DNA from: Fusibacter sp. A1
GTDB taxonomy: Bacteria; Bacillota; Clostridia; Peptostreptococcales; Acidaminobacteraceae
Direction: 5' to 3'
Length of the DNA stretch: 64,000 nt
NCBI RefSeq assembly: GCF_004125825.1
Contig: NZ_QQWI01000005.1
Location: 304,414 to 368,413 of the forward strand
Under the pieces are notes generated by a model that worked only from the letters and a program-made list of their open reading frames with translations, did not search any database and had not been told where the DNA came from. The position numbers and the translations under genes were made by a program. How positions within the stretch are numbered: the first letter of the stretch is position 1; every line of letters begins with the position of its first letter. Shown in pieces: positions 14,639 through 55,688 of the stretch.

Positions 14639-14798
14639 TTCTCCTCCTCCACTACTATAGATCCCTTCTTTCATCTATTCCCCTTTAATCCTTACTAATT
14701 GCAATTATTTGACTTGCATCACCCAAAACACGCATTGACATTAACGCAGCGTCATCGGGTATAATTGAATTGAAGTACTTCAAGAAAAGAGGATATCA

Positions 14799-14909
14799 AT
14801 GCTAATAACCGATGTATCTAAAAAGTATGCTGTCTCTACTAGAACCTTAAGATATTATGAAGAGCTTGGACTGATCACCTGCTCCGAAAATTGCTCTACC
14901 ATCAGTTAA
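14799..14909 (+). pseudogene. MerR-family HTH fragment (36 codons, truncated)
   Basis: MLITDVSKKYAVSTRTLRYYEELGLI is a classic MerR N-terminal HTH, then a stop. Upstream TTGACA-19 nt-TATAAT promoter with the MerR-type long spacer. Confidence 0.45.
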
Positions 14910-15367
14910 ATAGACTTGATACTTCAATCATCGACTTGAAGTATAAGCGTCAACTGGTGCGGTCTACACTGCAAACATTCGGTTCTGATGATTTAACTAA
15001 AGTGAATCTTAAGGCATTCCTAAGTCAACAGCTATTTTTTAGGTCATCCGATGAAAGGTGGACCAACATGATAGAAAATGATAGTCATATCACCATAGAT
15101 ATCGGCAAAGACTTAATCCCGATAGCCCTAGACGATGCAAAGTGCTCATTATTCAGTTCCATCAAAGAACTTAGAGAAACCCTATTAAAAGACTACGGCA
15201 TCGATTTGAAAAAAATCAGAGTAAAAGACAATCTAAATGACCTGTCTCCAAACGAATTTCAGATCTTAAACGACGATAAGGTCCTCATAAGAAAGCAAAT
15301 CAACTCTGAAAATCAACAGCTACAGGTTGATCAGATCATCACACAGTTGAAGGCGATAGTGCTGTAG
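14891..15367 (+). pseudogene. Orphan ORF with an FlhA/FHIPEP-like cytoplasmic-linker segment (likely relic of a type III/flagellar export gene)
   Basis: ITIDIGKDLIPIALD...LRETLLKDYGIDLKKIRVKDNLNDLSPNEFQILNDDKVLIRKQI aligns with the FlhA motifs LELEIGYGLIPLVD...IRRQ..ELG..VPPIRIRDNLQL.PNEY.I...G. No TM domain and no remaining cytoplasmic domain. Confidence 0.4.
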
Positions 15368-15402
15368 GACGATTGATGGCTAATCACACTTCATCTATAG
15401 TT

Positions 15403-15939
15403 CTATGCTTTAGCTAATTTTTTTACTTCTTGAAGCAGTAAAACACTAAAAACAACTTCAACTGCAATCATCAATACGGCTACTGTGACCGAAGTATAAA
15501 AACTACCAACGATCAGTGCCATCAGTGGAATAATAATTGCAAACACCTTATAGCTGGTTGATTTATAGATCCAACTATAGGGTAGTAAGTGTGCACCAAA
15601 TATCATCGCCATCACCATTACAAATTTATCAGGGCTTGTCGCATAGACCCACATGGCAATCAGCAGGTAAAGCATCTGGTTCATGGAAACTAAAAATCCC
15701 AACTGATCAATCGGATTATCCTTGCTGCTAAACTTGATGTTCATTAACTTTGAAATCAGGAATGAAACAGGCAATAATAACGATGTCGCACAGAAGGTCA
15801 ACAGATTCTTGGTTTCTATGACAAGCCCTGTACTATGGATAACGGCAATCACTGACCAGATGATAACAGAAGTCAGAATGAAGTGGATACCCTTCTTTTG
15901 ACTTTTCATACATTGGAGTCGTAATGTTTCTAATTTCAT
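15403..15939 (-). CDS. Hypothetical 5-TM membrane protein
   Basis: Hydrophobic, no motif recognised. Confidence 0.5.
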   Translation of the reverse strand: MKLETLRLQCMKSQKKGIHFILTSVIIWSVIAVIHSTGLVIETKNLLTFCATSLLLPVSFLISKLMNIKFSSKDNPIDQLGFLVSMNQMLYLLIAMWVYATSPDKFVMVMAMIFGAHLLPYSWIYKSTSYKVFAIIIPLMALIVGSFYTSVTVAVLMIAVEVVFSVLLLQEVKKLAKA

Positions 15940-35514: not shown

Positions 35515-38500
35515 CTACTTCAGTTTGCTGCTATCAACACTAACTTCAATTCTATCAATCTGATGATTGCGCATGAAAATTCGTTGACTGATTGACTTAT
35601 TAAGCATGTTGGTAGCTTCGAACTCACCTGATGTTCCATCGTTGTAATAGACTGTAATCTTGCGCTCAAGAGCAAACTTGTAAACAACCGGAACCGCACA
35701 GAACGTAAAGGCTAAGGAACCAGGCTCAAGTTGTATTGCCGTTTTTTGCGTCTTGTCACCTTTTGAAGGTAGAGTCCATAGGCTCGCATCTTTAAGAAAC
35801 TCAGACTTAGGAAGTAGTACTGGATCAAAAATAAGACAACCGCTTTTAACCTTGACGCCTAGTTCTCCGAACCGTGCGATGAAATCTTCCTTAACCTGCC
35901 CAGTCATTCCTGGTTGCTGCACTCCTGCAAAACCTGGAGTGTGAGAATAAGGATCTGTTGGGAACGCACCATAGTCTTCCGGCGACTTCTCTAGTCCGAT
36001 TCCCGCTTTTATGTCTTCATAATAATGCATTAGCTCTTTTGTCTCATGACTCATTCCACTCGTTGTGTACGCGTCAAAAAAGTTTTCCTGAGTGATCAAG
36101 GCTAATTTGGAAACCATATGCCAGTAGATGCATCCAAGGCCTTCATACTTGTAAAAAGTGCCCGAACGTCCTGTGAATGCGTGATGGTTGAACAGTCTAG
36201 TAAAGATTTCTCCAACCGCTTCTATATCCGAAACCTCATAATCATTTGATCTTTCAATCGCTTCAACCAACTCATCGCTGTTTCTGAATTGTCCATTAAA
36301 ATGATAGTTTCCATGAATATCTTTTTCAATAAATCTTGTCCGTCCAGCGTCGATTTCGGTTTTAAGTACTACTGAAGACATCACCTCAGCTGCTGGCACG
36401 ATATTCTTTTCTAAAAATTTTGGTAGCTCGCGGTTTGGATAAAGCATATAGCTGTTCTGATCCTCGCGGTAAATACTGCTGCTTCTTAGTGCCTTTAAGA
36501 CGCTTACAGCCTCTTTACTGTCAAGCGCCTTAGAACTGAGCACGGCGACCTGACCTTCTAGCATTTCATATAAATTAGAAACAGAACACGTATCACCGTC
36601 GAAGTGAATCAGGTTGTAAGAGTGATATAGACCATCTTCACGTTTATTCTTATTGATTGAATCCTTTAAGTGATCTGATGAAACCTCAATAAACGCCTTT
36701 AGCGATTCAGTCGGCAATGCTTTTTTTATACCTGTAAAACCATTGTCGTAGATCGAATTTCTATACGTCTGACCGATCTCACCAAGTGACTTGACTACTG
36801 CAAATCGATTCTCGTTTGAAATGTTCTGACCTAGTAACTGCCTATTCTCTTCAAGTACAGTCAAGGTATCGTTAAACATGTCAAGTACTTCTATAGAAAC
36901 TTCAATTTCCTGTTCGGTGATTCCTTCTACAAGATCGCGCATATATGCCAAGAACCGATGTAAGTAACCTAAAGTGACCATAGAGAGCCCATTACCGACA
37001 AGAGCGTTGTTCGCATCATTCCACTCAGGTCGCTGCGTATTCATCCAAATGCCACCTTCCGGTACATAGTTTGAAAATTTAGACAACATTGTTACCAGTA
37101 GCTTTTCCATCAGGTTCACCTTATAAGTCTCATCCCCCTGATATATCAGTTTTCCGTCTGATCCCACTACTTTTGTTTTATCATCAATACGTCTTCCTAG
37201 CTCGTCATCAAAGTCGATGCTGTTCCTTGGGTCTTTGACTAAAGATTTAAAATCTCTTATTCTATATGGCACATTCGCATAGACGAAAACATTTTTATGA
37301 AGAAGCTCTTTTAACTTGCTGGAATCATAATCATTGGAGAGTTCCAAAAGTTTAAGCAAGTAGATGATCTGATGGTCGCCCCAATAACCTATATTGGACC
37401 ATGGATCTTGCGGATCGTGCACCTCCCAATCAATTCCTTCTTTTGTGATTCTGTAAGGATTGTATCCATCCGCCGTCGAAGCATTTAGAAATTTGGCGAT
37501 GATACTTTCAATATACCCAGGGTATGAAATAGACAGCGCTTCCCAGTTTTGAAAAATATCACGCCAGTTTCCTTCAAATTTAAGTTTTTTACTTCCATCA
37601 TCCTTGAATAGATCAATATTGAATTTATTCCACGGACGACTTGGGTCTCCGTGTCTTCTGCTATAGGTAAGCGGTAAGTATTCGTACACCAGTCGTTCAA
37701 AATCTGGGCTGTTAAGTTCTTTTACCAGTGCCAACAACTCATGATACTCAATCGTCTCAGGTAACTGCTTTAAAACGTTAAGATGCATATCATAGACCGA
37801 CTTGTTCCAACCTTCGATGAACTCGTTAAAATCATCTGTATCGATTTTATATTCATCGGCGTAAATACCACCTCTCATGATATTGTAAAGGGTGTTCGAA
37901 AAATGACGGTAGCCCGCCTTCTCATTTGCAGTATGCTGAAAGCCGTCAGCTTCAAATACGAGCCTTCTTAACTTGTTATCACCCTTTAAAACGTCAGCAC
38001 TTAACTCTTGAATTATCATTTGATTCACTTTTAACGAATTTATGAGGCTCTCTACGGATGCGGCACTTTGGTTTAGCTCTGCAACAATCACCCATTCTCT
38101 TTTTTCGTTGCCGCTTAGTTCAAGGGTATCATGAACATAATAGGCGCCTCGTCTCCCTTTGACATCGTACTCCGTTTCAATGGAATTCCCCTTTGTAAAC
38201 ACAGCTAGCTGCTGTTCTGATAAAAGATAAGTCGGATTATCAAAGCCTTTTGACCAAACCGTCGTGGCTTTGAGCGACTCACTTGGTTCAGCCTTATCAG
38301 AAAGGATTGAGCTTAATGTGTATATTCCAAGACCTGTATCCGCATGTAGTTCACATCGTTTGTATCCGTCGACAAGCGTGCTTTTTGTGGTTTGCATCAG
38401 TGTATCTACACCATACGGAAGTATATTTCTAATTCCATCTAAAACCTTGACCTTTATAACTGATTCAGAAAGATTGATAAGTTCAGATGCTTTTACAAAT

Positions 38501-38982
38501 CCGAAAGTGTCGGAACTTTTCCATGTATAGCTAAAGCTCACATTCAAGTCATGATTGATTTCTTCAAAGATGATTTTATTACCTATCGCATTTTTGTAGA
38601 GATTACGCGAAATGACATAGACATCCGCATGTTGAGTAGAAAATGGCTTCCACAAAAACCGTTTCTCTTCTTTTTCGACGATCAAGACGGTATCAGAACC
38701 AGAAGTCTCAATGCTGTCATGTATCTTATCGTCCGTATAATATGGAAACAGCGCTGAATCGGCATTCTTACGTCCGCAAGTCACACCACCCGTGCTTGAT
38801 ATATACATCCAGTGGTCTACATCGCTGACTACAGACATAAAAAAGGGATCCATCTGATTAAAATTCTCAATCTTGAAGAAAGTCTCATCGGATCTTCTTA
38901 TCGTTTCAAGCGAAATCGATTTCGTAAATGGGTTTAAAAGATTGCTGCCAAAATACAAATCTTGTTCATTGCTCATTTTCAT
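35515..38982 (-). CDS. Large cytoplasmic GH94-like glycoside phosphorylase family protein (possibly beta-1,2-oligoglucan phosphorylase-like)
   Basis: 1155 aa, no signal peptide. RPEWNDANNAL resembles the GH94 catalytic-acid motif (G)DWND. Lies in a locus with GH1, ROK kinase, LacI and HAD phosphatase. Confidence 0.5.
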   Translation of the reverse strand: MKMSNEQDLYFGSNLLNPFTKSISLETIRRSDETFFKIENFNQMDPFFMSVVSDVDHWMYISSTGGVTCGRKNADSALFPYYTDDKIHDSIETSGSDTVLIVEKEEKRFLWKPFSTQHADVYVISRNLYKNAIGNKIIFEEINHDLNVSFSYTWKSSDTFGFVKASELINLSESVIKVKVLDGIRNILPYGVDTLMQTTKSTLVDGYKRCELHADTGLGIYTLSSILSDKAEPSESLKATTVWSKGFDNPTYLLSEQQLAVFTKGNSIETEYDVKGRRGAYYVHDTLELSGNEKREWVIVAELNQSAASVESLINSLKVNQMIIQELSADVLKGDNKLRRLVFEADGFQHTANEKAGYRHFSNTLYNIMRGGIYADEYKIDTDDFNEFIEGWNKSVYDMHLNVLKQLPETIEYHELLALVKELNSPDFERLVYEYLPLTYSRRHGDPSRPWNKFNIDLFKDDGSKKLKFEGNWRDIFQNWEALSISYPGYIESIIAKFLNASTADGYNPYRITKEGIDWEVHDPQDPWSNIGYWGDHQIIYLLKLLELSNDYDSSKLKELLHKNVFVYANVPYRIRDFKSLVKDPRNSIDFDDELGRRIDDKTKVVGSDGKLIYQGDETYKVNLMEKLLVTMLSKFSNYVPEGGIWMNTQRPEWNDANNALVGNGLSMVTLGYLHRFLAYMRDLVEGITEQEIEVSIEVLDMFNDTLTVLEENRQLLGQNISNENRFAVVKSLGEIGQTYRNSIYDNGFTGIKKALPTESLKAFIEVSSDHLKDSINKNKREDGLYHSYNLIHFDGDTCSVSNLYEMLEGQVAVLSSKALDSKEAVSVLKALRSSSIYREDQNSYMLYPNRELPKFLEKNIVPAAEVMSSVVLKTEIDAGRTRFIEKDIHGNYHFNGQFRNSDELVEAIERSNDYEVSDIEAVGEIFTRLFNHHAFTGRSGTFYKYEGLGCIYWHMVSKLALITQENFFDAYTTSGMSHETKELMHYYEDIKAGIGLEKSPEDYGAFPTDPYSHTPGFAGVQQPGMTGQVKEDFIARFGELGVKVKSGCLIFDPVLLPKSEFLKDASLWTLPSKGDKTQKTAIQLEPGSLAFTFCAVPVVYKFALERKITVYYNDGTSGEFEATNMLNKSISQRIFMRNHQIDRIEVSVDSSKLK

Positions 38983-41449: not shown

Positions 41450-44400
41450 TTAACTTTCATTCACAGCAACTTCGAATACGTCTTTGATCTTACATAAGCT
41501 ATCTCGAAGATCGCTCAGTACAACTACCGCTTGACCCATTTTATCATCACTTCCAGCCAATTTACTCTTTTGGTAGACTTGCTTGATCTCTGAATATCTG
41601 GCTGATTCATGTTCATTCATATGGCCTGTGATTTCTTTCCATTTCAGAAGGTTGGATTCAGCTCCAGTAGTCAGTGTTTGGCAATCATTTTCATAGCTTG
41701 CTATGATTTGTTCTGTCAACTCAGTATCATTCATCACAGATACGACGCGTTGAGCGATCTTGTTCATGTTTCTGTAAGACCCTTGAAGCTTAAACGGCGG
41801 CTCATTTCTGTATTCGTCAGACTGAGCTGCAGAATGGATATACTCCATATTGACTCTTAAAACAATGTCTCTGACATGACTTAACTTGGTAATCACTTGA
41901 GTGTACTCATTAAGTTCATCGGCCGTATAACTACTTTCCAATGTGATCGACTCCCTATCGACGCCGTTTGCCATCTGCACAAGACCGTATAAGTCAGACT
42001 GGCTTCGACTTGAAAGCTTTGATAAGACAGGGTTAGACGTCAAGCTGTTCTCAATGTAACTAAGCTTGAAGGCTTCCTCATTCTCACGTAGCATGTCCCC
42101 TAGGTTATAAACATCAGCCCTATTGGCAAGCATATCCGGTATTTTAAACTTGGCGCCACTTTCAGTATAAGGATTACCGGCCATGACAACCGCTATTTTC
42201 TTACCTCTCAAATCGTATGTCTGACCGACTCCATTGTAGACACCTTCAATCTTACGCTGCCCGTCGCAAAGGGAGATAAATTTTTGCAAGAACTCAGGGT
42301 CGCAGTGTTGAATATCATCAAGATACAACATCACATTGTTCCCCATTTTAAGCGCTAGATTCAACTTTCTCAGTTCTTCCTTGGCACTCGAATGTGAAGC
42401 CTTGTCAGGATCAAGCGAAGTGATTTCGTTTCCAAGGGAAGGACCATTGATCTTTACAAGAATTATGCCTAATCTGCTGGCGATATATTCCATCAGTGTC
42501 GTCTTACCATAACCAGGCGGCGATACTAAAAGTAGTAATCCCATAAGATCCGTTCGCTTATCATCACCCACTACACCCATTTGCTTAGCAAGATTCTCTC
42601 CTACTAAGGGTAGATACACCTTGTCGATCAGTCTATTTCTGACAAACGATGTCAGCACATTGGGTTTAAAGTCGTCAAGACGAAGTACCTCTTTGAAGTT
42701 TTTGATCAACTCACTTTTAAGTGCGTTGAACTTCAGATAATCATCTACCACTTCTTCGCTGAATAAACGCATTTTTGACATGAACTTTGTATAGCTAAGT
42801 TCGTAAGTTCCATCTGCGATTACGCCGTGCGAGCCTACAAGACCTTCAATAACCGTTTTAGTCGGTACTTGTATGACACCGCTCATGTTCACATCTTCTT
42901 CAAGGAGCAGAACGACCACTTCGTTCAATATGCCTGGCCAATCCTCAGCCTCAATATCCATAGGTGTCTTAAGGCTAGCCGTCTGCTCGTTCCAGTATGC
43001 CAAGACCCATTCCTTAACTAGGAAGAATTGTCCTTCCAGATCGGCTTTACTTGCCTTTAAAGACGCTTCAAAGCTTTCCAGCGCATGATTATCTCTAATA
43101 AACGCTTTAAATCCATCATAGACTTGTTTTGCTTCTAGACTTATCACAAAGGATGTCCCTTGCATTAACTCCTTGCACAAGTATTCCGATGAGGCTTCGA
43201 TACTCACCTTGTCATAAAAACCAAGGGTGTCAAACGCCTTTTCCAGGTTTTCTACAACTAAGGGAAGATAGTTATCCAGACTTGGCGCTGATTTGAAAAA
43301 TGTGCCTACTTTAGTCAAGTGATTCAACCGCGTACTTAACAACGTCTTCGTCTGCTCATCTACAAGACGACTCCAGAATAACCTCGCCATTGATCTTACA
43401 TCGCTTTGATAAGTCAACAGGTTGATATGGTGATGAAGATGAAGTAGCGCGCTTAATATCTTTGTCGCATCCTCATCATGCACCCCTTTTGTATACCCTT
43501 CCTGATACCTTGTCTCCATAAACGTCCTGACACGGTCTAAAAGTTGTGAATCCGACATATCGTATAACGTCTGTAAACTTTCAATTTGTAGATTCCTTGA
43601 TGCTTCAAAAGCAGTATATGCCAGATACTCTCCCCTATAGACATCAGCATTTTCAGAAACGAGTGTCTGTTCAAATACATGCTGATACCCGCTCAATTCA
43701 CGGTGGACCACCCTATCCCAAAAATCAGTTCCTGTGATGTGGTAGTAAAGCTGATTATCCTTTTGAACAATGGATAGGTCAATCGCCTTTCTGTTCACAG
43801 AAAAATGATGGTTGCCAAATTTGATGACATCCTGTCCATTCAGGTAGAGGTCTTGCTTGTCTTTCAACTGACGTATGGCATTTTCTTTGAGTGATTTGAG
43901 CTTGGCACTTACTTCATCCGCTTTGACGCTGTCTCCAAGTGACCTTAGTTCAGAAATGATATCTCTGACTTTTTCGGCCATGATATCAGATGCAAGATAA
44001 CCGTTGATCATTTCAATCGTATCAAGGCCCATCAAACGATTTTGAATACCACCGATGATACGCTGTGAAGAATCGAAAAGTGCGACCAACCGCTTATTAA
44101 GCTTATCTAGTAGCGTCTGCTTTCTCGATTCGAATGCGCTGTAGATCTCTTCTCTTTTTTCATCAAGCTTTATAAGATACTCTTCAAACTCAGAAAACTT
44201 ACCTTCAAGCTCCTGAAGCTGTACCATCACCTTATTCAGGTAATTGTCACACTTGTCTTCTGTATCAGCTATTTCAAGATAGTTCAAAACAGCCTGACCA
44301 AGCAGCTTCATTTGAGCGTTAAACTGAATCGTCATCTCGGTTTTTGTGAAGGTTTCGATTCTGACTTTCAGTTTGGCTTTCGCATTATTCATCAAGGAGA

Positions 44401-46336
44401 AGAGAGCAGAAATCTTTTCGATAAGTTCTGTTGTCACTGTCGGGTCTTCGATTTTAAAATTGCTTACTATTTCCATCAACAACTCTAAATCGGTGGACGT
44501 CTTGTCCATTTTTACAGCAAGTTCATTTCCCTCTAGCGACTTTTCGACCGATTCGATCGAACTATGCAACTCATCTACAACCATCTCATACGGCTTCAGG
44601 CCGTCTGGGCTTACGATGAACGCGACACATTTTTCAGAAAATGCGTCATTTTTTTCTTTGACGCGATCCTCTAATTTCTGAACCACGTCAAGGTCTGTAT
44701 ACATCAGATCTCTCAACGAGACTATTTCACCGCGTATGTTTCTGATTTCGCCAAGTACATCGACGTATTCATTGATGTTCTCAAAGGTTCCATATTCAAT
44801 CTTTTTAAGCAGCTCCTCCGTTGTCTTTCCAACTAGTTCGATTTGCTTCTTTGCTACTTCCTTCATTCGAATGACTTTTTCGAATTCTCCAATTGCAAAA
44901 GTGGATGTCTCTTTGATCTCCTTAAGCACCTGAGCAAGATTGAAAGCCTCATCCTTATCCACCCAAAAGTAGGAATCCAAAATGTTTTGAGTTTCCTTTA
45001 CAATATCAAGGTACACGCTTTGATAGCTGTCCCCCTTTTGTACAAGTTTTCCGACACCTCTGCAGGCCGCTATACAGTCAACGACATCCTTATTGCCTAT
45101 CTTGTAGAGTACCGAATCCCTATTCCCCTGAGCAACATGATTCTTGCCGACATAAGGTGTCTGCCATACTTGAAGTGAATGGTTTTTTCTGGGTTCATTC
45201 TCATGTCTGAATACGATCATCTCACCACTATTAAAATGTGAATAGCCACTACAGACGATAGGCATTTCTATTGTCTGCTCAATCATATTATACGAGTACA
45301 TCAGATAGGTACCGCTATCCATATTATAAAAGATATACTGATAGTCCTCGCCGTTTGTAGAACTGATAATCTGATCAAACACCGCATTTTCTAGGGGCAC
45401 GTCAAAGAGCTTATATTCCCCACTTCTCAAGTAATACCCTTGAGGAAAGATCAAGCCATGTCCTCCTGGCAAAAGCTTGCACGTATGTTCCATTGAATCA
45501 ACTCGAACCACATTCTTCAACTTGTTGTTGAAGACAAAGTAACGGTAGGCTTTTTCCTTATAGGGAAGAATCTTAAGCAGGATCAGCTGATCCAAGTCCA
45601 CATAGTAGATCTCGGCATCGTCAAGGTTTTGGTCCTTATCCTCAACAACCTCAGAATAGATACCTTTTCCCGTTTCGGTATTGTCCTCAACCTTAATCGT
45701 AAGGTCTCCACCTATAGTTTCGACAAATACCTTATCCAGAATGGAAACATGGGGGTGGATACCTGTTCTTTGCTGGTCTCTTGTCGCCCTCTGAAAGTCG
45801 AAATCATTGCCTAGGTTGAACTTTACTTCGTGCTCGCTTCTGTTATCGACATAAATCAAACGACGACCTTCGATCAGCCACTTGAACACTTTAATATCCG
45901 TCGCAGCTTTTCCGGTCTGAAAGACCATGTAAAAGTAAGGTTCAGAGATTGTGAACTTGGCAAAGAAGGTGTTCTTGTAGTACTGATACAGATCATCAAA
46001 ATCCTTTTTGAAAAGGTCATCGTTGATCAGTTCGAGGGATTCCTTTATGAATCCCTCTTCACCATACTTGTAAATTGAGAAAACATCCTCAAGTTCAACC
46101 TTTTGCTTCAAGCCGATATGAACGTTGTATCCAAAAAGGAAGCAATCGTCCACAGGTGCCATATCACGAGGGATGCAGTTGTTCTCTGTAAGAATCCTCT
46201 CACTGGCAAGTAGTTTTGTATCAACGGACCCAAAAACATCTTTTCTAGTAGCATTCAATTTCTCCGCTCTTGTTTTTAAGTCGACACCTTGTTTTTCCAG
46301 ACGACTCTTAATTACCTCATAAGTCCCTGAATCCAT
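41450..46336 (-). CDS. Giant (≈1630 aa) uncharacterised AAA_5-type ATPase
   Basis: Start at the ATG 1 nt after the flotillin stop, with a TTGGAG RBS. N-terminal ~450 aa beta-rich, ~750 aa helical/coiled-coil, then Walker A SPPGYGKTT, Walker B VMLYLDDIQH and sensor VVMAGNPY near residues 1250-1420. Function unknown, although the ORF itself is near-certain. Confidence 0.5.
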   Translation of the reverse strand: MDSGTYEVIKSRLEKQGVDLKTRAEKLNATRKDVFGSVDTKLLASERILTENNCIPRDMAPVDDCFLFGYNVHIGLKQKVELEDVFSIYKYGEEGFIKESLELINDDLFKKDFDDLYQYYKNTFFAKFTISEPYFYMVFQTGKAATDIKVFKWLIEGRRLIYVDNRSEHEVKFNLGNDFDFQRATRDQQRTGIHPHVSILDKVFVETIGGDLTIKVEDNTETGKGIYSEVVEDKDQNLDDAEIYYVDLDQLILLKILPYKEKAYRYFVFNNKLKNVVRVDSMEHTCKLLPGGHGLIFPQGYYLRSGEYKLFDVPLENAVFDQIISSTNGEDYQYIFYNMDSGTYLMYSYNMIEQTIEMPIVCSGYSHFNSGEMIVFRHENEPRKNHSLQVWQTPYVGKNHVAQGNRDSVLYKIGNKDVVDCIAACRGVGKLVQKGDSYQSVYLDIVKETQNILDSYFWVDKDEAFNLAQVLKEIKETSTFAIGEFEKVIRMKEVAKKQIELVGKTTEELLKKIEYGTFENINEYVDVLGEIRNIRGEIVSLRDLMYTDLDVVQKLEDRVKEKNDAFSEKCVAFIVSPDGLKPYEMVVDELHSSIESVEKSLEGNELAVKMDKTSTDLELLMEIVSNFKIEDPTVTTELIEKISALFSLMNNAKAKLKVRIETFTKTEMTIQFNAQMKLLGQAVLNYLEIADTEDKCDNYLNKVMVQLQELEGKFSEFEEYLIKLDEKREEIYSAFESRKQTLLDKLNKRLVALFDSSQRIIGGIQNRLMGLDTIEMINGYLASDIMAEKVRDIISELRSLGDSVKADEVSAKLKSLKENAIRQLKDKQDLYLNGQDVIKFGNHHFSVNRKAIDLSIVQKDNQLYYHITGTDFWDRVVHRELSGYQHVFEQTLVSENADVYRGEYLAYTAFEASRNLQIESLQTLYDMSDSQLLDRVRTFMETRYQEGYTKGVHDEDATKILSALLHLHHHINLLTYQSDVRSMARLFWSRLVDEQTKTLLSTRLNHLTKVGTFFKSAPSLDNYLPLVVENLEKAFDTLGFYDKVSIEASSEYLCKELMQGTSFVISLEAKQVYDGFKAFIRDNHALESFEASLKASKADLEGQFFLVKEWVLAYWNEQTASLKTPMDIEAEDWPGILNEVVVLLLEEDVNMSGVIQVPTKTVIEGLVGSHGVIADGTYELSYTKFMSKMRLFSEEVVDDYLKFNALKSELIKNFKEVLRLDDFKPNVLTSFVRNRLIDKVYLPLVGENLAKQMGVVGDDKRTDLMGLLLLVSPPGYGKTTLMEYIASRLGIILVKINGPSLGNEITSLDPDKASHSSAKEELRKLNLALKMGNNVMLYLDDIQHCDPEFLQKFISLCDGQRKIEGVYNGVGQTYDLRGKKIAVVMAGNPYTESGAKFKIPDMLANRADVYNLGDMLRENEEAFKLSYIENSLTSNPVLSKLSSRSQSDLYGLVQMANGVDRESITLESSYTADELNEYTQVITKLSHVRDIVLRVNMEYIHSAAQSDEYRNEPPFKLQGSYRNMNKIAQRVVSVMNDTELTEQIIASYENDCQTLTTGAESNLLKWKEITGHMNEHESARYSEIKQVYQKSKLAGSDDKMGQAVVVLSDLRDSLCKIKDVFEVAVNES

Positions 46337-46337
46337 A

Positions 46338-48362
46338 TTATGCTCCAATTACATTTTCAATTAGATTGGCTGGTAGATTTGCAACACCCGCCTTGTTTAC
46401 AGTATCAAGTAGCTTAGTCAACATCGCATGGTCGTTTCCTTCTGCAGTCTTCATCATTTTTCCTATAGCACCCGAAATGGTGATGTTCATCAGGTCTTGA
46501 GAAGATAAGTTGAATCTTCCTACCATCGTTTTAAGCTGCTGCTGGAAGTAGTCCGCGTCTCCTGTGATGAGGGTCTCTTTGATATCCTTTAGCACTTCAC
46601 TGTTGTTTACAACACGGTCAACCGCCTTACCTTGCGCGATCGAACCGATAATTTTGTCAAAGAACATCGTTTCTCCACCGACAATATCGATCTTAGCTGA
46701 TTTAAGCGCTTCTCTGATAACAGACGCTTGAGCATCTGCAATATCCTTTTGAATGGTGATTTGAGCAAGTTCGATCTGTTTTTCCTTATCAAGCTTGAGT
46801 TTGAACTCTTCATGATCTCTGCCTACAGCATCAAGTAATTTCATGCTATTGGCCTTTTCCTTGATACCTTCAGCTTCTGAAAGGTACATTCTCTTAAGGT
46901 TTGCAGCTTCGACAGTACCGTCTTTCTCTTTTACTTCTACTTTGGCGGTTTCGCCTTTGGCTTCTGCAAGTGCTTTCGCTTCAATCACTTTCGATGCGGC
47001 AATACCTTCGACAGAACCTTCCAGCACTCTGGCATCAACAATCACCTTGATCGCTTCCGCTTCTTTATGAGCGGCTTTCAGATTTGCATCTGCGTCGATA
47101 ATTGTCTTTTCGGCTTCTTTTTCAGCAGCCATCTTGGCGGCTTCCGCACCTTTAACAACAAGAATTTGCTTTGTTTCCGCCTCTTCTTCTGCTTTTCTGA
47201 GCGCTACATTTTTTGTACGGTTTGCATCCGCAAGCGCACGCGTGTCTTTGATTTTTTCTTCTTCCACCACGGTATCTTTTTCGACAGTCACTCTTTCTCT
47301 AATTACCGTCTGTATATTCTTCTTCTCAACTTCTACTAGCTTTTCCTTATCGATGATAGCAAGCTCGACAAGCTTTTCCTTTTCAGTTCTCTCAAGCAGT
47401 CTTTTTCTTTCTACACGTTCAGTTTCGATGGCTTCTGTGCTTTCCTTGGACTTTGCCGCAATGATGATCTGTCTTTGCTTGTTCTCCTCGGCTACACCAA
47501 TCTCTTCTTCTGTCTTCACTCTGGCAAGCTCAGACTTATAGCGTTCTTCTTGAGCGACCTTTTCAGCTTCGGCGATTTCACGTGAATTGATGATCGAAAT
47601 CTCTCTAAGCTGTTTGGCTTCGGCTTCGGCGTTTTGCTTTTCAAGTTCTAAAATAGCTTCTCTTGCCGATACGTCTTGTCGCTTGATTGTCTTTTCGCGT
47701 TCTCTTTCAATCTCGTTGGCCAATATTCTTTGAGTTGAAGTCAGTTCTGTGATCTTCTTGATCCCCTCAGAATCCAAAATGTTGTCAGGATTCAACAAGC
47801 GAATGTCGGTTTGCTCCAGATAATCGATCGCGGCATCATCCAACACATAACCGTTTAAGTCCGTGCCGATGATCTGCAGGATTTCACTCTTAAAAGTCTC
47901 ACGGTCCGTATATAACTGAACAAAATCAAACTTTTTGCCTACAGTCTTAAGCGCTTCAGAGAATTTTGCATCAAAGAAGGCCATTAGGGTTTCCGGATCG
48001 GATGCTTTTTGACAACCCAGCAGCTGTGCGACTTTTAAAACGTCATCTGTCGTCTGATTGACACGAACGAAGAATGCGACACGGATATCCGCCCTTAAGT
48101 TGTCTTTACAGATCAAGCCGTCCTTGCCTTCTCTAGCGATTTCGACACGTTTGATCGAAATATCCATCTCCTCTTTGCGGTGGATGATGGGTACTACCAT
48201 GATGCCGCCAAAGCAGACAACCTGATTGCCGATACCGTTTCTAATGATTACCTTCGACTGCTCCACCTTGTGATAGAAACTGGCAAATAAGGCCAGTAGT
48301 CCAACCACAATGACGATTGATGCTCCTACCGTGACAAGGGTTCCTTGTAATAAAACATTCAT
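46338..48362 (-). CDS. floT: Flotillin-family (SPFH/band-7, FloT/YqiK-like) protein
   Basis: N-terminal TM + SPFH domain, then a long EA/K-rich coiled-coil. Start at MNVLLQG with GGAGGAA RBS, not the longer ORF start at 48377. Confidence 0.85.
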   Translation of the reverse strand: MNVLLQGTLVTVGASIVIVVGLLALFASFYHKVEQSKVIIRNGIGNQVVCFGGIMVVPIIHRKEEMDISIKRVEIAREGKDGLICKDNLRADIRVAFFVRVNQTTDDVLKVAQLLGCQKASDPETLMAFFDAKFSEALKTVGKKFDFVQLYTDRETFKSEILQIIGTDLNGYVLDDAAIDYLEQTDIRLLNPDNILDSEGIKKITELTSTQRILANEIEREREKTIKRQDVSAREAILELEKQNAEAEAKQLREISIINSREIAEAEKVAQEERYKSELARVKTEEEIGVAEENKQRQIIIAAKSKESTEAIETERVERKRLLERTEKEKLVELAIIDKEKLVEVEKKNIQTVIRERVTVEKDTVVEEEKIKDTRALADANRTKNVALRKAEEEAETKQILVVKGAEAAKMAAEKEAEKTIIDADANLKAAHKEAEAIKVIVDARVLEGSVEGIAASKVIEAKALAEAKGETAKVEVKEKDGTVEAANLKRMYLSEAEGIKEKANSMKLLDAVGRDHEEFKLKLDKEKQIELAQITIQKDIADAQASVIREALKSAKIDIVGGETMFFDKIIGSIAQGKAVDRVVNNSEVLKDIKETLITGDADYFQQQLKTMVGRFNLSSQDLMNITISGAIGKMMKTAEGNDHAMLTKLLDTVNKAGVANLPANLIENVIGA

Positions 48363-48380
48363 ATAGTATTCCTCCATAAG

Positions 48381-49082
48381 TTAAATAGTGTTGCCATCGT
48401 TCATCAGTGGTGTGGTGATAAAGTACACATCGTCCACCTTATCCTTGCTAAATACAAATACGGTCTCACCTTTTTTATAAACAAGATGTTTGTCGGCTGT
48501 GGTGACATTAATGACAATCGATACTCCGTCCTGCATGATCTCTGCCTGTCCGAGCCGTCCATATTCCACATCGCTTTTCAAAGTGCATCTTTTGTAAAGC
48601 ACCCTATGGGCAATGTCTTCCTCATTTTTCCTTTCAAAAAAAAGCTTTCTTATCGGAATAAGCTCAAGTTTCGTTATGTAAAGGCTCAAAAAAAATGCCG
48701 GTATCAAAAGCACCGCGCTGATCAGACCGCCCGCTTGAATCGGAAGGACATACAAGAGCATGCTTGATATCCAGAAGTTCAGAAAAATCATACTGAGTAC
48801 CAGGGCGAATGGGATATCACCGCTGTTAACAAGCACCGCGATACCGCTAAGCGGTCCTGACGCATCAGCACCTTCCACATCGAGATCGACATCAAACAAA
48901 TCAAAATCCAGAAAGCCTGTGATAGCCACCAACCAATATAGCTGCATCAAAATCAGCAGTGCGGTAGGTATGACATTTATTCCTGTAAAAGCAAATCTTA
49001 TTAATTCCGTAACAATCACCTCCATCGTACAATCATCGTAAGAACAGGTAACGACTAGGCCTAGAGTATCAGGCTTTAGCAT
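48381..49082 (-). CDS. NfeD-like (YuaF/YqiJ-type) membrane protein
   Basis: Multi-TM N-terminus, C-terminal OB-like soluble domain. Immediately upstream of flotillin as in yuaF-floT and yqiJ-yqiK. Confidence 0.6.
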   Translation of the reverse strand: MLKPDTLGLVVTCSYDDCTMEVIVTELIRFAFTGINVIPTALLILMQLYWLVAITGFLDFDLFDVDLDVEGADASGPLSGIAVLVNSGDIPFALVLSMIFLNFWISSMLLYVLPIQAGGLISAVLLIPAFFLSLYITKLELIPIRKLFFERKNEEDIAHRVLYKRCTLKSDVEYGRLGQAEIMQDGVSIVINVTTADKHLVYKKGETVFVFSKDKVDDVYFITTPLMNDGNTI

Positions 49083-49295: not shown

Positions 49296-50243
49296 TCATA
49301 GACTTTCAAAATCGGTTTCTATGATCCTTTGGTATTCCTTTTTATCGTATCGCTTTAAAACCTTGAGCGCCCTAAGTGTATTGAACCTGCCTGCCCTTGA
49401 ATCTTCAAGCCTAAAGTGCAGTTCTCCCCCATATTGAGAGCCTTTTGGCATAAAGCCTTTTCGCATGTTCTTTTTGATCAGATCAAGCCCCTCTTTCATG
49501 CGTTCATCATAATGCCTCTTCACCGATGCGAAATATTCGAGCGCGCGTAGATAGTCGTACTTCCATCTTGGCGGGTAATGTGCCCTCAGAAAATCCTTCT
49601 TGATGACTTCTCCAGTACTTACCGTATGGAATAGCCTTCTTTCAAGCAGGTATTCCTCGCCTTCGTATGATTTTTCCTGCATTTCCTCCGACCTGTATCC
49701 GTCACCCCATGTTCCATAGTCTCTAAAGGCCTCAAGTACTGTCAAGGTCGTATGGATGGATCCCCTTGTGGAAAGGTGCTTCTTATAATTCCACTCGCAG
49801 TTCCAACCCCCATCCTCCATCTGGTGATCTAAGAGTTCATCGACCATTTCGTGAGTCCGTACCTCAGTGAATCTTCCATAAGCTGCCAGACTCAGCACCA
49901 TAGCAACCACACAAAGATCAGGCCGCTTCCACATGGACTTGTAGTCTTGTGAACGCCACAACTGATCCACTAGCTTCACCATCGCCTTTTGATAATAGGG
50001 GTGCTGAAAATCGATTTCCATATACTTCAGTTCCCGCATCGTATAGTGGGTTGAGATCCATTTGGGGCTGTATATGCCCTTTCCCCATAATCCCGAGTCA
50101 TCGTCAAAAAGATCGATGTATTTCTTGATGTAACCATCTTCTGTAGAGGGAAGTTCCACCTCTAGCAAATAGGTAGAAGTCAGTCTACGTATCACCGGAT
50201 CGCCTTGCATCAACCAATCAATCACTTTCATAGGAGCCTCCAT
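49296..50243 (-). CDS. Hypothetical protein (possible alpha/alpha-toroid, QxxDGGW-like repeats)
   Basis: HQMEDGGWNCEWN and DSGLWGKG are reminiscent of prenyltransferase/terpene-cyclase repeats. Weak evidence. Confidence 0.35.
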   Translation of the reverse strand: MEAPMKVIDWLMQGDPVIRRLTSTYLLEVELPSTEDGYIKKYIDLFDDDSGLWGKGIYSPKWISTHYTMRELKYMEIDFQHPYYQKAMVKLVDQLWRSQDYKSMWKRPDLCVVAMVLSLAAYGRFTEVRTHEMVDELLDHQMEDGGWNCEWNYKKHLSTRGSIHTTLTVLEAFRDYGTWGDGYRSEEMQEKSYEGEEYLLERRLFHTVSTGEVIKKDFLRAHYPPRWKYDYLRALEYFASVKRHYDERMKEGLDLIKKNMRKGFMPKGSQYGGELHFRLEDSRAGRFNTLRALKVLKRYDKKEYQRIIETDFESL

Positions 50244-50356: not shown

Positions 50357-52106
50357 AGATTACTTGCATTTGATCATTTAGTCCAGATAAATACGTCTTC
50401 CACATCTTACTGAAGTGCCTATCATTCGCATGAAGCTCATCAAGCGTGCCTGATTCAACGATTTGCCCTTGATCCATTACGATAATCAGATCAAACATTT
50501 CAAGTAGGTGCAGTTGATGAATCGGCGTGATGATCGTACGATCCTTGAACTCATTGAGAATCTGACTGAAGATCATTTTTTCATTCAACGCATCGACACT
50601 GCTGCTGATCTCGTCAAGCAAGAGCATTGATTTATGCCTGGCAAAGAACAAGGCTCTTGCAAGTGCTAAGCGTTGTTTTTAACCACCAGACAAATTGACG
50701 CCTTTCTCCCTGATATCGGTATCAAGTCCCTTTGGGAATCCTTTCAACACTTCTGAAAATCTTGATATGACGAGTATTTTTTCCATATACTTCTCATCGT
50801 AGTCCATACCGAATGTGATATTATACCGAATTGTATTTTCAAAAATTTCGATATCCTGAGGCGCCAGCAGACTCATTTGATTGATGCAGTGAAAGTCATT
50901 GATTTTGATGCCGTCAATGATAAGGTCTCCATTACTTGGAGTATGAAACCCTGCAAGCAAATGAATCAGCGTGCTTTTTCCAGATCCGCTACTTCCGATT
51001 ATCGCCACTTTACTTCCAGTACGGAGATCCAGGTTGATGTTGCGAAGCGTACTCTCCTGATTATCATAGCTGAAGTGAAGATTCCTATTTGCAATGTGCT
51101 CCCATGACTCTACTTCTACTGAAACGCTCTTAGCAGTTAATTCGTCGGAAGTTGTGACAATCTGCGAAACTGATTGTAGTGAAGTTTTCCAATCCATCGT
51201 ATCGTAGAAGGTATTTGTAATGTCAAAAAATGATGTGCTCATGGTTTTAAAGTAATTGACAATGGCGATCAGCGATCCAATGATGATCACTCCACCCGCT
51301 TCGCTAGCCGACCACAAGAAAAACAAAATGAGAACAAGTTCTGTTATGAAAGTCCCGGATGCGCTTATGAAGCAGCGCGGTTGGTTTATTTTGAATTCCC
51401 GCATTCTTTCGTGAACATAATGATTGAACTTGTGATTCAGAACCTCATTGGTCTCCTCTTTTAAATGCAGGTTGATCACAGTACGAATGTTGACGATAAA
51501 ATCGAACAACTTAGCAGTATAAGCATGAGTCTCTTCGTTGATACTGTGTAGTATCGGTTGAATAAGCAAATTCATTTTGGTAACTACAACTAAGTTGACC
51601 AGAGTCAAACCGATACATATCATCGAATACTTCCACGAGTAGTTGATGAGTATGAACACCGGTCCGACCGATAATAAAAGATTTCCAAGCATTTCGTGCT
51701 GCATGAACCCATAATCCCTAAGTGAAAAGCTGGCAGTATTGATTCGATTGACAAGCTCTCCAGAATGATTGTTGGTATGCCATTGTATTGGCAAGGAATA
51801 CACTCTACCATACATGTCATCTACAAAGTTCTTTTGCATCGTATATGCCACGGTTAATTCAAAATATCTTGCAGTATGATGAAAAACTTGAAAAGCCAGA
51901 AATCCTACCAGATACATGGACAGCCAAAATAGCGTTGGTCGAATATTTCCAATTCCATTTACTTGCAGCAAGTTGATCGCTTTACCAAATGAATAGGGCT
52001 GAAAAAGAACCCCTGCAAAAGACAAGCTGTGTAAAAAGTATAAAAGAACAATCTTCCAACGTTCTTTTTCCGCATAAATCCATGCTGTTTTAAAAAGATA
52101 TAACAT
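50355..52106 (-). pseudogene. Fused TMD-NBD ABC exporter interrupted by an in-frame TAA in the LSGGQ signature
   Basis: Walker A GSSGSGKST and signature LSGG, then TAA (50679-50681) where Gln is expected. Downstream in-frame KQRLALARALF...LLLDEISSSVD (Walker B). Confidence 0.6.
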
Positions 52107-53810: not shown

Positions 53811-55688
53811 CTAGTAAGGGCTAAAGAAGCTAAGCGATGCATCGTGTCTAAAACTAAAGTAGTCCAAATAATTCAAGTCGCTGACTCTCGTGATCACTCC
53901 GCTTTTTAAATCAATGGAATACAACCTGCCTGAATCCAAATGAAGTAGTAATCCTTGAACTTCCTGTTCGTCTTCATATAGTAGACGGAAGTGCTCAGAA
54001 GACATTCTTTTGAAGCTTTGCTGATCGATATCATATTGATAAAAACCTGACTCGTCGTCATATCGATTATAAAAAAGAGTATTTCTTATCTGCTCTAATT
54101 GATTGAATTCACCTTGTGCTATCAAACTGTAATCTCTGTCAATCAGCTGATAAAGTCCAGCTTCATCGCCCGCTGTCGCTGCAAAATCGTTTGTAGCGTT
54201 TTTTACGTGTTCAAGGCTGTTAGTTTTACCTTTTAAGGTTACCTCTTCATCAACACCTATCACCATATCGTTGTTCCACGTAGTATGTTGAGCAGGCAGT
54301 TCCCAGTCAGGATAGGTCTGGTGGCCCTTGATATCAGATATGACATAACTTATCACTGCAAAGGAATCATCCAGCAATAGTAAGATATCAAAATCACCAA
54401 TCAGGTATTCCGCTTTATAGCCTTGATATAGCTCATCATATTCAAGAATTGATAGCTTCATAGGTTTTCCTAAAACAGCTTCCACTTCACCAAGTTTCAT
54501 TCCCTTTCGAACGCCGAACAGCGGTTCATCTCCCCGATAGAACAAGGTGATAATTATCGAATCCTGCTCATCTATTTCACGATTGAACTCCGAAAGGAAT
54601 GAGAATGAACCGATGATACCGTAGTGGGCTCCCCAAAAGAAATCAAACGATACTTGATCATGTTCTACATTCAAAGCCTCTTCCAATTCCCTTACGGTCA
54701 TTCCCAGTCCGATTTCTACATTTGAGATGTCATCAAAGTACTTGCCAAGTGATAGATAATTACCGCTATCCATACCCACCACCTGTAGGTCCTCATTCAA
54801 TGTAACTCTTCTGATTTTGTTACCGCTTCTGAAGCTCAGTTGATTTTCACTATAAATCACAGGTTCAAATTTCATTCCATAGTGACGATCAACCATCAAT
54901 AGCCTATTAGTGATCAAATTCCAGGCATAAAGATTGATTGTATAAGGTTGCTTTAAAAAGTGCTCGTAGTCATCAACATCACTGAACTGAGGATAACTCG
55001 AATAGACTATCCAGTTGGATTCTGCATTAAACACAACTTCAGATCCAAACTGATCAGGTATGCTTATCAAACTGATACTTTGTTCCTCAATATCTAAAAT
55101 CGCCACCTTATCCCATTGGTATACGTTCATCGGGTGCCGATCGGGTACGCAGGTAAGCCTACCGCCCTCATCATTGACATAAAAATCAGAATAACTTCCA
55201 AAGGATTCGATATTGAACTGTGTCGTATCGTATTTGTCATAATCAAAGTCACTTGATGTCAAGTCGACGACATAGATTTCTTGATCAAAGACAACAACCA
55301 TTACTGACTCGTTTTTGTTTACGCTAAAATCGAAAAAATTATCATTCCTCTTGCTGAACACCTCAAGAGGTTTTTCTGACCTTGTAGTCTTCCATATGAC
55401 ACAACTGTTGTCATGCTTCAACTTAATATATTTTGTTCCATTATGCATATCTAGTATATCGTTTGTGTAAGCCAGATAGCCGTCACTGTAACGATGCGCT
55501 GACTTTTCTGATAGGTTCTCAGCCTCTACCTTGTTCAGGCTCTCTTCAAGTTCAAGGATCCTTTGCTTTAGCTCGGTGCTTGTCTGTTTGTACAGTCGTG
55601 AGTCCTGATACAGACTGAATGATAAATAGGATGTCACTACCGATAGTAGGCATAATAACAACACAACCAATCTTACGTTCTTGCTCAT
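53811..55688 (-). CDS. Hypothetical signal-anchored extracytoplasmic protein (625 aa)
   Basis: N-terminal TM then coiled-coil then a large beta-rich domain. Confidence 0.4.
   Translation of the reverse strand: MSKNVRLVVLLLCLLSVVTSYLSFSLYQDSRLYKQTSTELKQRILELEESLNKVEAENLSEKSAHRYSDGYLAYTNDILDMHNGTKYIKLKHDNSCVIWKTTRSEKPLEVFSKRNDNFFDFSVNKNESVMVVVFDQEIYVVDLTSSDFDYDKYDTTQFNIESFGSYSDFYVNDEGGRLTCVPDRHPMNVYQWDKVAILDIEEQSISLISIPDQFGSEVVFNAESNWIVYSSYPQFSDVDDYEHFLKQPYTINLYAWNLITNRLLMVDRHYGMKFEPVIYSENQLSFRSGNKIRRVTLNEDLQVVGMDSGNYLSLGKYFDDISNVEIGLGMTVRELEEALNVEHDQVSFDFFWGAHYGIIGSFSFLSEFNREIDEQDSIIITLFYRGDEPLFGVRKGMKLGEVEAVLGKPMKLSILEYDELYQGYKAEYLIGDFDILLLLDDSFAVISYVISDIKGHQTYPDWELPAQHTTWNNDMVIGVDEEVTLKGKTNSLEHVKNATNDFAATAGDEAGLYQLIDRDYSLIAQGEFNQLEQIRNTLFYNRYDDESGFYQYDIDQQSFKRMSSEHFRLLYEDEQEVQGLLLHLDSGRLYSIDLKSGVITRVSDLNYLDYFSFRHDASLSFFSPY

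Follow-up and report, generated by a model that had tools for sequence, protein, structure and literature searches.

Apparent remnant of a single MerR-type regulator gene with an FlhA-D1-like C-terminal domain in Fusibacter sp. A1

The region described here is a short intergenic-looking segment of a window of 64,000 nucleotides (the whole stretch of Fusibacter sp. A1 DNA that was analysed). It contains two small open reading frames in different frames of the plus strand, a promoter with a ribosome-binding site ahead of them and a convergent gene behind them (Table 1). ORF1 exceeds the Pfam cut-offs for MerR (E 8.6e-9, 35.5 bits against a cut-off of 28.2) and for MerR_1 (E 5.2e-6). The original prediction had called it a truncated MerR helix-turn-helix (HTH) of 36 codons, which is what it is, residues 28-72 being deleted. 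The complete MerR winged HTH of about 70 residues is missing from the window copy, where only positions 1-30 of the 69 in the MerR_1 profile are matched. ORF2 matches Pfam FHIPEP (E 1.6e-8, 34 bits, cut-off 29.1) at profile positions 322-406 of 657. It was correctly said to have no transmembrane region and to be followed by no further part of such a gene, the next gene being the convergent one. A database check of the 158-aa ORF against FlhA, proposed together with the original prediction, turned out significant with Pfam and TIGR01398, and hhalign, as well as Foldseek run on the model of the homolog P0003, likewise pointed to FlhA.

Table 1. Features of the region, in window coordinates
Feature	Position	Strand	Remarks
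MerR-type promoter: -35 TTGACA (14735-14740), -10 TATAAT (14760-14765), spacer 19 bp	14735..14765	+	pattern search
Dyad operator TAACGC-A-GCGTCA	14742..14754	.	spacer positions 2-14; one left-arm mismatch in the window
Second perfect palindrome TTGAAGTACTTCAA	14770..14783	.	4 nt past the -10, around the expected transcription start
Ribosome-binding site AGAGGA	14788..14793	+	5 nt upstream of ATG 14799; read off the sequence
ORF1	14799..14909	+	36 codons; Pfam MerR/MerR_1 over residues 1-30
Surviving 5´ part, codons 1-27 (MLITDVSKKYAVSTRTLRYYEELGLIT)	14799..14879	+	MerR HTH helix 1 and helix 2; Pfam MerR/MerR_1
Deletion junction	14876..14880	+	136 nt absent relative to five intact homologs; exact base ambiguous by a few nt
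Surviving 3´ part, 162 codons and stop	14879..15367	+	corresponds to residues 73-232 of intact homologs
Out-of-frame ORF1 tail CSENCSTIS, stop 14907-14909	14880..14909	+	downstream part read in the wrong frame
ORF2	14891..15367	+	158 codons; frame differs from ORF1; Pfam FHIPEP
Candidate internal start: AAAGGTGG (15054-15061), 6 nt, ATG (15068-15070)	15054..15070	+	inferred
FlhA-D1-like domain (strand-helix-helix-three strands)	15083..15301	+	homologous to FlhA ~353-424
Family-specific C-terminal amphipathic helix (…QVDQIITQLKAIVL) and stop	15302..15367	+	helix 216-231 of the P0003 model; conserved in the alignment
Convergent neighbour, full-length DUF7010 membrane protein	15403..15939	-	E 6.6e-60

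When the database was searched with ORF2, five proteins came up (P0002-P0006; 232-234 aa, 55-61% identity along the entire ORF) whose precomputed Pfam annotation lists MerR, MerR_1 and FHIPEP together. Intact homologs, 226-260 aa long, carry the MerR HTH, a coiled coil and a C-terminal FlhA-D1-like domain in one reading frame. In the protein alignment, window codons 1-27 pair with residues 1-27 of P0002-P0006, and residues 28-72 of these proteins are covered by neither of the window ORFs. At the DNA level, alignment with the five intact genes leaves a gap of exactly 136 columns (79-214), present in the window copy only. What the deletion took away is the wing, helices 3-4 and the beginning of the dimerisation helix; what follows it is the rest of the coiled coil, the helical linker and the C-terminal domain. 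The predicted coiled-coil dimerisation helix is retained in the window from residue 73 onward. The 3´ part has zero internal stops, is 55-63% identical to P0002-P0006 over its full length of 162 residues and keeps all family-conserved residues, including the 53 invariant columns of the closest relatives.

Because 136 is not a multiple of three, the reading frame changes and a stop is reached nine codons past the junction. With residues 28-72 lost and the frame shifted, the DNA-binding protein can no longer be made and the window copy is therefore a pseudogene. The two ORFs had been presented as two separate relics. Since both parts lie in one frame in the intact homologs and a single 136-nt deletion joins them, we read positions 14735..15367 as one gene with its own promoter, broken by that deletion. 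The ancestral sequence and the exact junction, as given here, are reconstructed from distant homologs, the closest intact allele found having 61% identity. What the window copy keeps are the promoter hexamers, the spacer length, the operator (with the one arm mismatch), the ribosome-binding site, codons 1-27 and the 162-codon 3´ part. As promoter, operator, 3´ reading frame and conserved residues are undecayed, the lesion looks recent in evolution.

A MerR-style promoter of the form TTGACA-19 bp-TATAAT had been pointed out ahead of ORF1, and this holds as well: the window has a single exact match to the pattern, where shuffled sequences would lead one to expect 0.03. An over-long spacer containing a dyad is a hallmark of MerR-activated promoters (PMC9909328). 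In the present case such a promoter fronts the regulator's own gene. We compared the upstream region of the window gene with those of nine independent lineages carrying intact copies (L003, L004/L007/L008, L005, L009, L011, L012, L013, L014 and L015). All ten have TTGACA (once TTGACT), a 19-bp spacer and a -10 hexamer that reads TATAAT, TATACT, TATGAT, TACACT or TAAGAT; promoters of the family stand 30-52 nt upstream of the start codon. Spacer positions 2-14 are occupied by a 6-1-6 dyad with the consensus T[TG]ACG[CT]-N-[GA]CGT[AC]A, whose arms co-vary between loci (TGACGC/GCGTCA, TTACGC/GCGTAA, TGACGT/ACGTCA). The combination typical of MerR, a spacer of 19-20 bp with a dyad operator, is accordingly found in the window and in all nine other lineages. 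No further copy of the spacer dyad was detected in the 64-kb window, other matches being mismatched and at chance level. Other operator targets nearby were considered and rejected, as only the gene's own promoter carries the spacer dyad or the GAAGTACTTC core described below.

The second palindrome, TTGAAGTACTTCAA, shows no sequence relationship with the spacer dyad. It is complete in four of the ten lineages (the window, L004/L007/L008, L009 and L011), where it starts 4-5 nt after the -10. Its 10-nt core GAAGTACTTC, which has a single exact copy in the window, is found alone in L003 and L015, is degenerate in L005 and is absent from L012, L013 and L014. An explanation at the RNA level, for the palindrome or for what had been called an intergenic junkyard, was rejected: the palindrome does not form a significant hairpin (z -1.2) and the Rfam search of the leader and the region gave no match below E 0.1. 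The palindrome may be a site for a second factor; its position at the predicted transcription start is unexplained by a model of one-gene autoregulation. Half-sites of the same palindrome are repeated as ACTTCAA-N8-TTGAAGT at window positions 14919-14944, inside the coding sequence (codons DTSIIDLKY). We do not regard these copies as functional, since they are not conserved in other loci and are probably due to chance. A weak, sub-threshold Rfam match to Flavo-1 (E 0.11; 15397-15485, minus strand) lies mostly in the 3´ end of the DUF7010 gene and most likely arose by chance, too.

For a wider view of the family, we built a profile from the C-terminal 162 residues and searched 1.84 billion cluster representatives with it (E <= 1e-3). 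The search returned 58 proteins, about 45 of them 226-260 aa long and matching from approximately residue 73 to the end; true FlhA appears in the result as a marginal match (P0054, 698 aa, E 2.5e-4, residues 355-416). Among the aligned full-length members, MerR and MerR_1 are matched in 35 out of 35 and FHIPEP in 34. The HTH of these 35 intact homologs is complete; in P0003, for example, the MerR_1 match covers positions 3-65 of 69. When each of 185,579 species was scanned through one genome, a single locus emerged, in a Clostridiales MAG. The MerR/FlhA-D1-like family is real but rare, and its profile matches place the intact proteins in the MerR family. In the library searched, no paper was found that describes MerR and FHIPEP combined in one regulator. 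To that extent, MerR regulators whose effector domain derives from FlhA are an undescribed variant of the MerR type; the feature in the window is an ordinary recent pseudogene.

Several aberrant relatives were seen. P0028 (160 aa) is a family copy with two in-frame internal deletions, P0067 (200 aa) has a frameshifted C-terminus and P0038 (645 aa) is fused to a UDP-glucose-dehydrogenase-like enzyme. Further, two soluble proteins, P0055 (265 aa) and P0068 (223 aa, partial), consist of an XRE-type HTH followed by an FlhA_C-like region made of a D1-like segment and a segment resembling D3/D4; one of them carries the JGI label 'FlhA'. In these proteins, cytoplasmic modules of FlhA are joined to the HTH of a transcription factor in a second, independent way.

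The resemblance of ORF2 to FlhA that the original prediction relied on is real homology. It lies above the Pfam cut-off, hhalign against a true FlhA gives a probability of 98.1% (E 7e-14, 72 columns, FlhA 353-424, 32% identity), and all matches of a PDB profile search are FlhA, over the same stretch. What did not stand is its reading as an export-gate gene, as only about 72 residues of D1 are involved. The TIGR01398 (FlhA) match has an E-value of 1.8e-9 but reaches 36 bits, compared with an equivalog cut-off of 772, and TIGR01399 reaches 18 bits with a cut-off of 692. Nothing in the MerR/FlhA-D1-like proteins corresponds to the linker, the membrane domain or D2-D4 of FlhA. The N-terminal membrane domain of FHIPEP (about 8 TM helices, about 330 residues) is present neither in the ORF nor upstream of it; intact homologs have the MerR HTH at this end instead. 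A complete set of domains D1-D4 is likewise missing, given the 72 aligned columns, and the C-terminal helix of the family falls outside the hhalign match. We also considered whether the conserved DERW motif in the linker might be the FlhA linker; this is unsupported, as the hhalign and PDB profile alignments stop at the ITIDIG strand.

An AF2 model of P0003, computed from the 35-sequence alignment, has a pLDDT of 83 (an earlier model from 7 sequences, with a pLDDT of 56, was discarded). It predicts an HTH with a wing (residues 1-67), a long helix (72-107), a helical segment leading into a low-confidence linker (128-140), a compact strand-helix-helix-three-strand domain (143-210) and a terminal helix (216-231). 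When the model was compared with the PDB by Foldseek, FlhA_C came out on top (3mix, E 1.1e-5), and 6ch1, 3a5i and 6ai2 were superposed over about 73 columns at 1.8-2.3 A. Interleaved with FlhA_C are matches of the N-terminal half, dimerisation helix included, to CadR, SoxR, MtaN, TipAL-N and HiNmlR. Alignments and model together argue that the homology to FlhA is genuine and limited to the first half of subdomain D1, and that the C-terminal domain has probably descended from this half of D1 of the FlhA cytoplasmic domain. Because there is no membrane domain, no D2-D4 and no flagellar context, and the scores are far under the equivalog cut-offs, we do not consider the family FHIPEP in any functional sense.

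The genomic surroundings are those of a solitary gene. Members of the family nearly always stand alone on their strand, between a divergent and a convergent neighbour, and the neighbours encode unrelated proteins, small enzymes or transporters, of the flavodoxin/ferredoxin, DUF7010, glyoxalase, MATE, MarR, NUDIX, GNAT, MFS and APH types. No flagellar or type III secretion genes, and hence no FHIPEP cluster, flank the gene at the 10 loci examined, and no conserved cis target gene was found among the loci examined. A conserved partner gene was looked for in the recurrent Flavodoxin_5 and NUDIX neighbours, which proved non-orthologous, being similar only at the level of the domain (25-31% identity over short stretches). 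In the window itself, no flagellar genes are among the genes called between approximately 4800 and 25100, and Pfam scans of the ten largest ORFs of the right-hand part found no flagellar families. Other members of the genus are described as motile, namely Fusibacter 3D3, with 136 COG-N genes (PMC5525254), and Fusibacter WBS (PMC10386464). We conclude from the one-gene structure and the non-flagellar loci that the region carries no implication of lost motility.

Elsewhere in the window, some other genes deserve a remark. The gene at 50679..52106 (minus strand) encodes a 475-aa ABC exporter (ABC_membrane and ABC_tran) whose ATPase-domain match breaks off at position 112 of the 137 in the profile, precisely where the protein ends; the next ORF is at 49296..50243 (minus strand). 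This may be another truncated or frameshifted gene. A block of three genes at 41450..49082 (minus strand) encodes a 1632-aa DUF3686/DUF7902/AAA ATPase, followed by proteins of 679 aa and 233 aa without any Pfam match. PADLOC gave no meaningful match for the large neighbouring genes, this block included. ORFs of 1155 aa (35515..38982) and 625 aa (53811..55688) were likewise unannotatable.

The original prediction had seen in the locus a dead MerR gene next to a separate flhA/sctV fragment, the latter being a fossil of flagellar or type III export machinery and of past motility, or else horizontally acquired. Significant matches to Pfam FHIPEP and TIGR FlhA speak for this scenario, as do GenBank entries naming the ORF FlhA or FHIPEP. 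Nevertheless, we find it practically untenable. Single-chain MerR-fusion proteins share 55-61% identity with the ORF along 162 residues, whereas its identity to true FlhA is 20-32% and spans only 72 residues, with the TIGR01398 score quoted above lying far below its cut-off. The part between the HTH and the FlhA-like region (coiled coil and the motifs LKYKRQL, EQLFF and DERW) is family-specific and has no FlhA counterpart, one deletion accounts for both ORFs, and flagellar neighbours are present at none of the loci examined. The 232-aa proteins are not artefacts of gene calling either, since the loci translate to the query proteins. One could also suppose that the organism has an intact gene and that the 136-nt gap was made in assembly, as the assemblies are all drafts. 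However, GenBank has three accessions with the identical remnant, which come from the strains Fusibacter sp. A1 and A2, and its contig was seen in two samples, so that the lesion is reproducible across assemblies. In addition, the junction has no direct repeats, so there is no repeat to collapse, and a clean loss of 136 nt in unique coding sequence is atypical of assembly errors. An assembly or sequencing artefact is thus very improbable. In the A1 and A2 entries the 3´ ORF is called with three different starts (99, 121 and 143 aa) and named "hypothetical protein", "flagellar biosynthesis protein FlhA" or "FHIPEP family type III secretion protein"; the latter two names are, judging from the comparisons above, misannotations.

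More delicate is the question whether the remnant is still alive, that is, whether its FlhA-D1-like domain is made as a protein of 99-158 aa with a function of its own, such as sequestering of a ligand or partner. Translation from the candidate internal start would give a 99-aa product (15068..15367) comprising the FlhA-D1-like domain only, and the GenBank call RXV61570.1 begins at this very ATG. In the P0003 model, the conserved internal Met lies in the low-confidence linker directly before the FlhA-like domain. It belongs to the motif E-R-(W)-x-x-M, coded as GAA AGG (T/A/G)(G/T)G, two codons and ATG (L005 has CAA for GAA), and this coding supplies an AAAGG Shine-Dalgarno core 6-7 nt ahead of the ATG. 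All 8 of the 8 lineages that keep the Met encode the Arg of the motif by AGG and the one Met-less, distant lineage by AGA, while AGG makes up 16% of other Arg codons in the family genes and 11-25% in surrounding genes. The chance of eight AGG codons is about 1e-5 to 1e-6 if the lineages are taken as independent and before any correction for the post-hoc choice of position. The internal Met is missing from about one fifth of family members. Family genes have their own MerR-type promoter, a monocistronic layout and an internal AAAGG..ATG, and a domain-only short isoform in the manner of TipAL/TipAS may exist in the family, a suggestion we make tentatively.

For the remnant in particular, the frame open over 162 codons, the retention of all conserved residues, the good Shine-Dalgarno-like AAAGGTGG and the intact promoter would suit a living gene. 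Stand-alone calls of similar length occur elsewhere, for example P0024 (99 aa) with the same Met start, and TipAS and AlbAS are precedents for products consisting of the ligand-binding domain only (PMC7762955; bioRxiv 10.64898/2026.09.21.753095). On the other hand, a very recent deletion predicts the open frame equally well, the short database entries may be fragments at contig ends, and the promoter needs an activator that is now lost. A promoter with a 19-bp spacer and without its activator should be weak, which makes expression of the remnant doubtful. All in all, we consider a living remnant unlikely, although a recent deletion and a 3´ part still under selection as a 99-aa product appear inseparable on these data.

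Taken together, the most satisfying explanation, in which we have considerable confidence, is one MerR gene with an FlhA-D1-like tail, presumably organised as an autoregulated tipA-like unit with a possible short isoform and interrupted by the 136-nt deletion. The intact gene would encode a MerR regulator of about 232 aa, whose winged HTH and long dimerisation helix are connected through a flexible linker to a small FlhA-D1-derived domain; this domain stands in place of the sensor or effector domains of other MerR proteins. Extrapolating from the family, we hypothesize that the protein binds, as a dimer, to the spacer dyad of its own promoter. A signal sensed via the C-terminal domain would then lead to self-activation by the usual MerR distortion of the promoter, resulting in a one-gene autoregulated unit like tipA. 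More tentatively, the internal Shine-Dalgarno sequence and ATG might give rise to an additional short isoform with the FlhA-like domain alone, and the window copy could still yield the 99-aa product at basal promoter activity. A bolder proposal, which we regard as rather speculative, is that the intact family forms a class of one-gene, self-activating MerR systems with an FlhA-derived sensor, the same domain being also produced on its own, from the conserved internal start and as in TipAL/TipAS, to capture the inducing ligand or partner. In that case the Fusibacter copy is a natural regulator knockout left with the short isoform only.

There are several consequences of these findings. For Fusibacter sp. 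A1, the FHIPEP match is removed as a false lead, since it does not testify to the loss of a flagellum or of a secretion system, and the misnamed remnant could otherwise distort inventories of motility and secretion genes. A small uncharacterised MerR family is exposed, with an effector domain that appears to come from FlhA D1 and with a well-defined operator and promoter. The family, possibly with a TipA-like two-isoform design, is well suited to studying how a domain of a secretion machine is recruited for use in a transcription factor. If the bolder proposal is true, then, along with the XRE-HTH/FlhA_C-like fusions, it would mean that transcription factors in Firmicutes have repeatedly acquired their signalling domains from the cytoplasmic part of FlhA.

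Among known systems, FlhA/SctV shares with the family domain the motifs ITIDIG..LIP and IRV[KR]DN...L..NE[FY], situated in FlhA at approximately 353-424. The family domain has about 90 residues in contrast to about 690 in FlhA. It comes without the TM domain, D2-D4, the second half of D1 and the ring-forming context, and the family-specific C-terminal helix takes the place of the rest of D1. The activators MerR, CueR, SoxR, BmrR and Mta resemble the family in having an N-terminal winged HTH, a long antiparallel dimerisation helix, an over-long 19-bp spacer with a dyad and a variable C-terminal domain in the effector position. Unlike in these activators, the C-terminal domain of the family is presumably a piece of FlhA and not a metal loop, GyrI-like, TipAS or B12 domain, and the promoter drives the regulator gene itself and not a divergent or downstream cargo; the window copy, moreover, is short of two thirds of the HTH domain.

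The TipA class seems the nearest in design. The tipA gene was described as a "minimal autoregulated" system in which TipAL is accompanied by the ligand-binding TipAS from a second start (PMC7762955), and AlbA/AlbAS provides a second two-isoform example (bioRxiv 10.64898/2026.09.21.753095). At one locus of our family, a stand-alone gene for a 124-aa TipAS-domain protein (L015:2534-2908, plus strand) lies directly upstream of P0062 (L015:3001-3714) on the same strand, an arrangement suggestive of a connection in function to TipA-type antibiotic sensing. With TipAL/TipAS of Streptomyces lividans, SkgA and AlbA/AlbAS, the family has in common a monocistronic MerR gene behind its own MerR-type promoter, without cargo. 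Its internal Shine-Dalgarno sequence and ATG, placed at the domain boundary, may be the start of a short isoform. The fold is different, with no match to the TipAS domain (PF07739, E <= 0.01) in any of the 35 aligned members, and autoregulation and the short isoform are proposed for the family by analogy with the TipA class.
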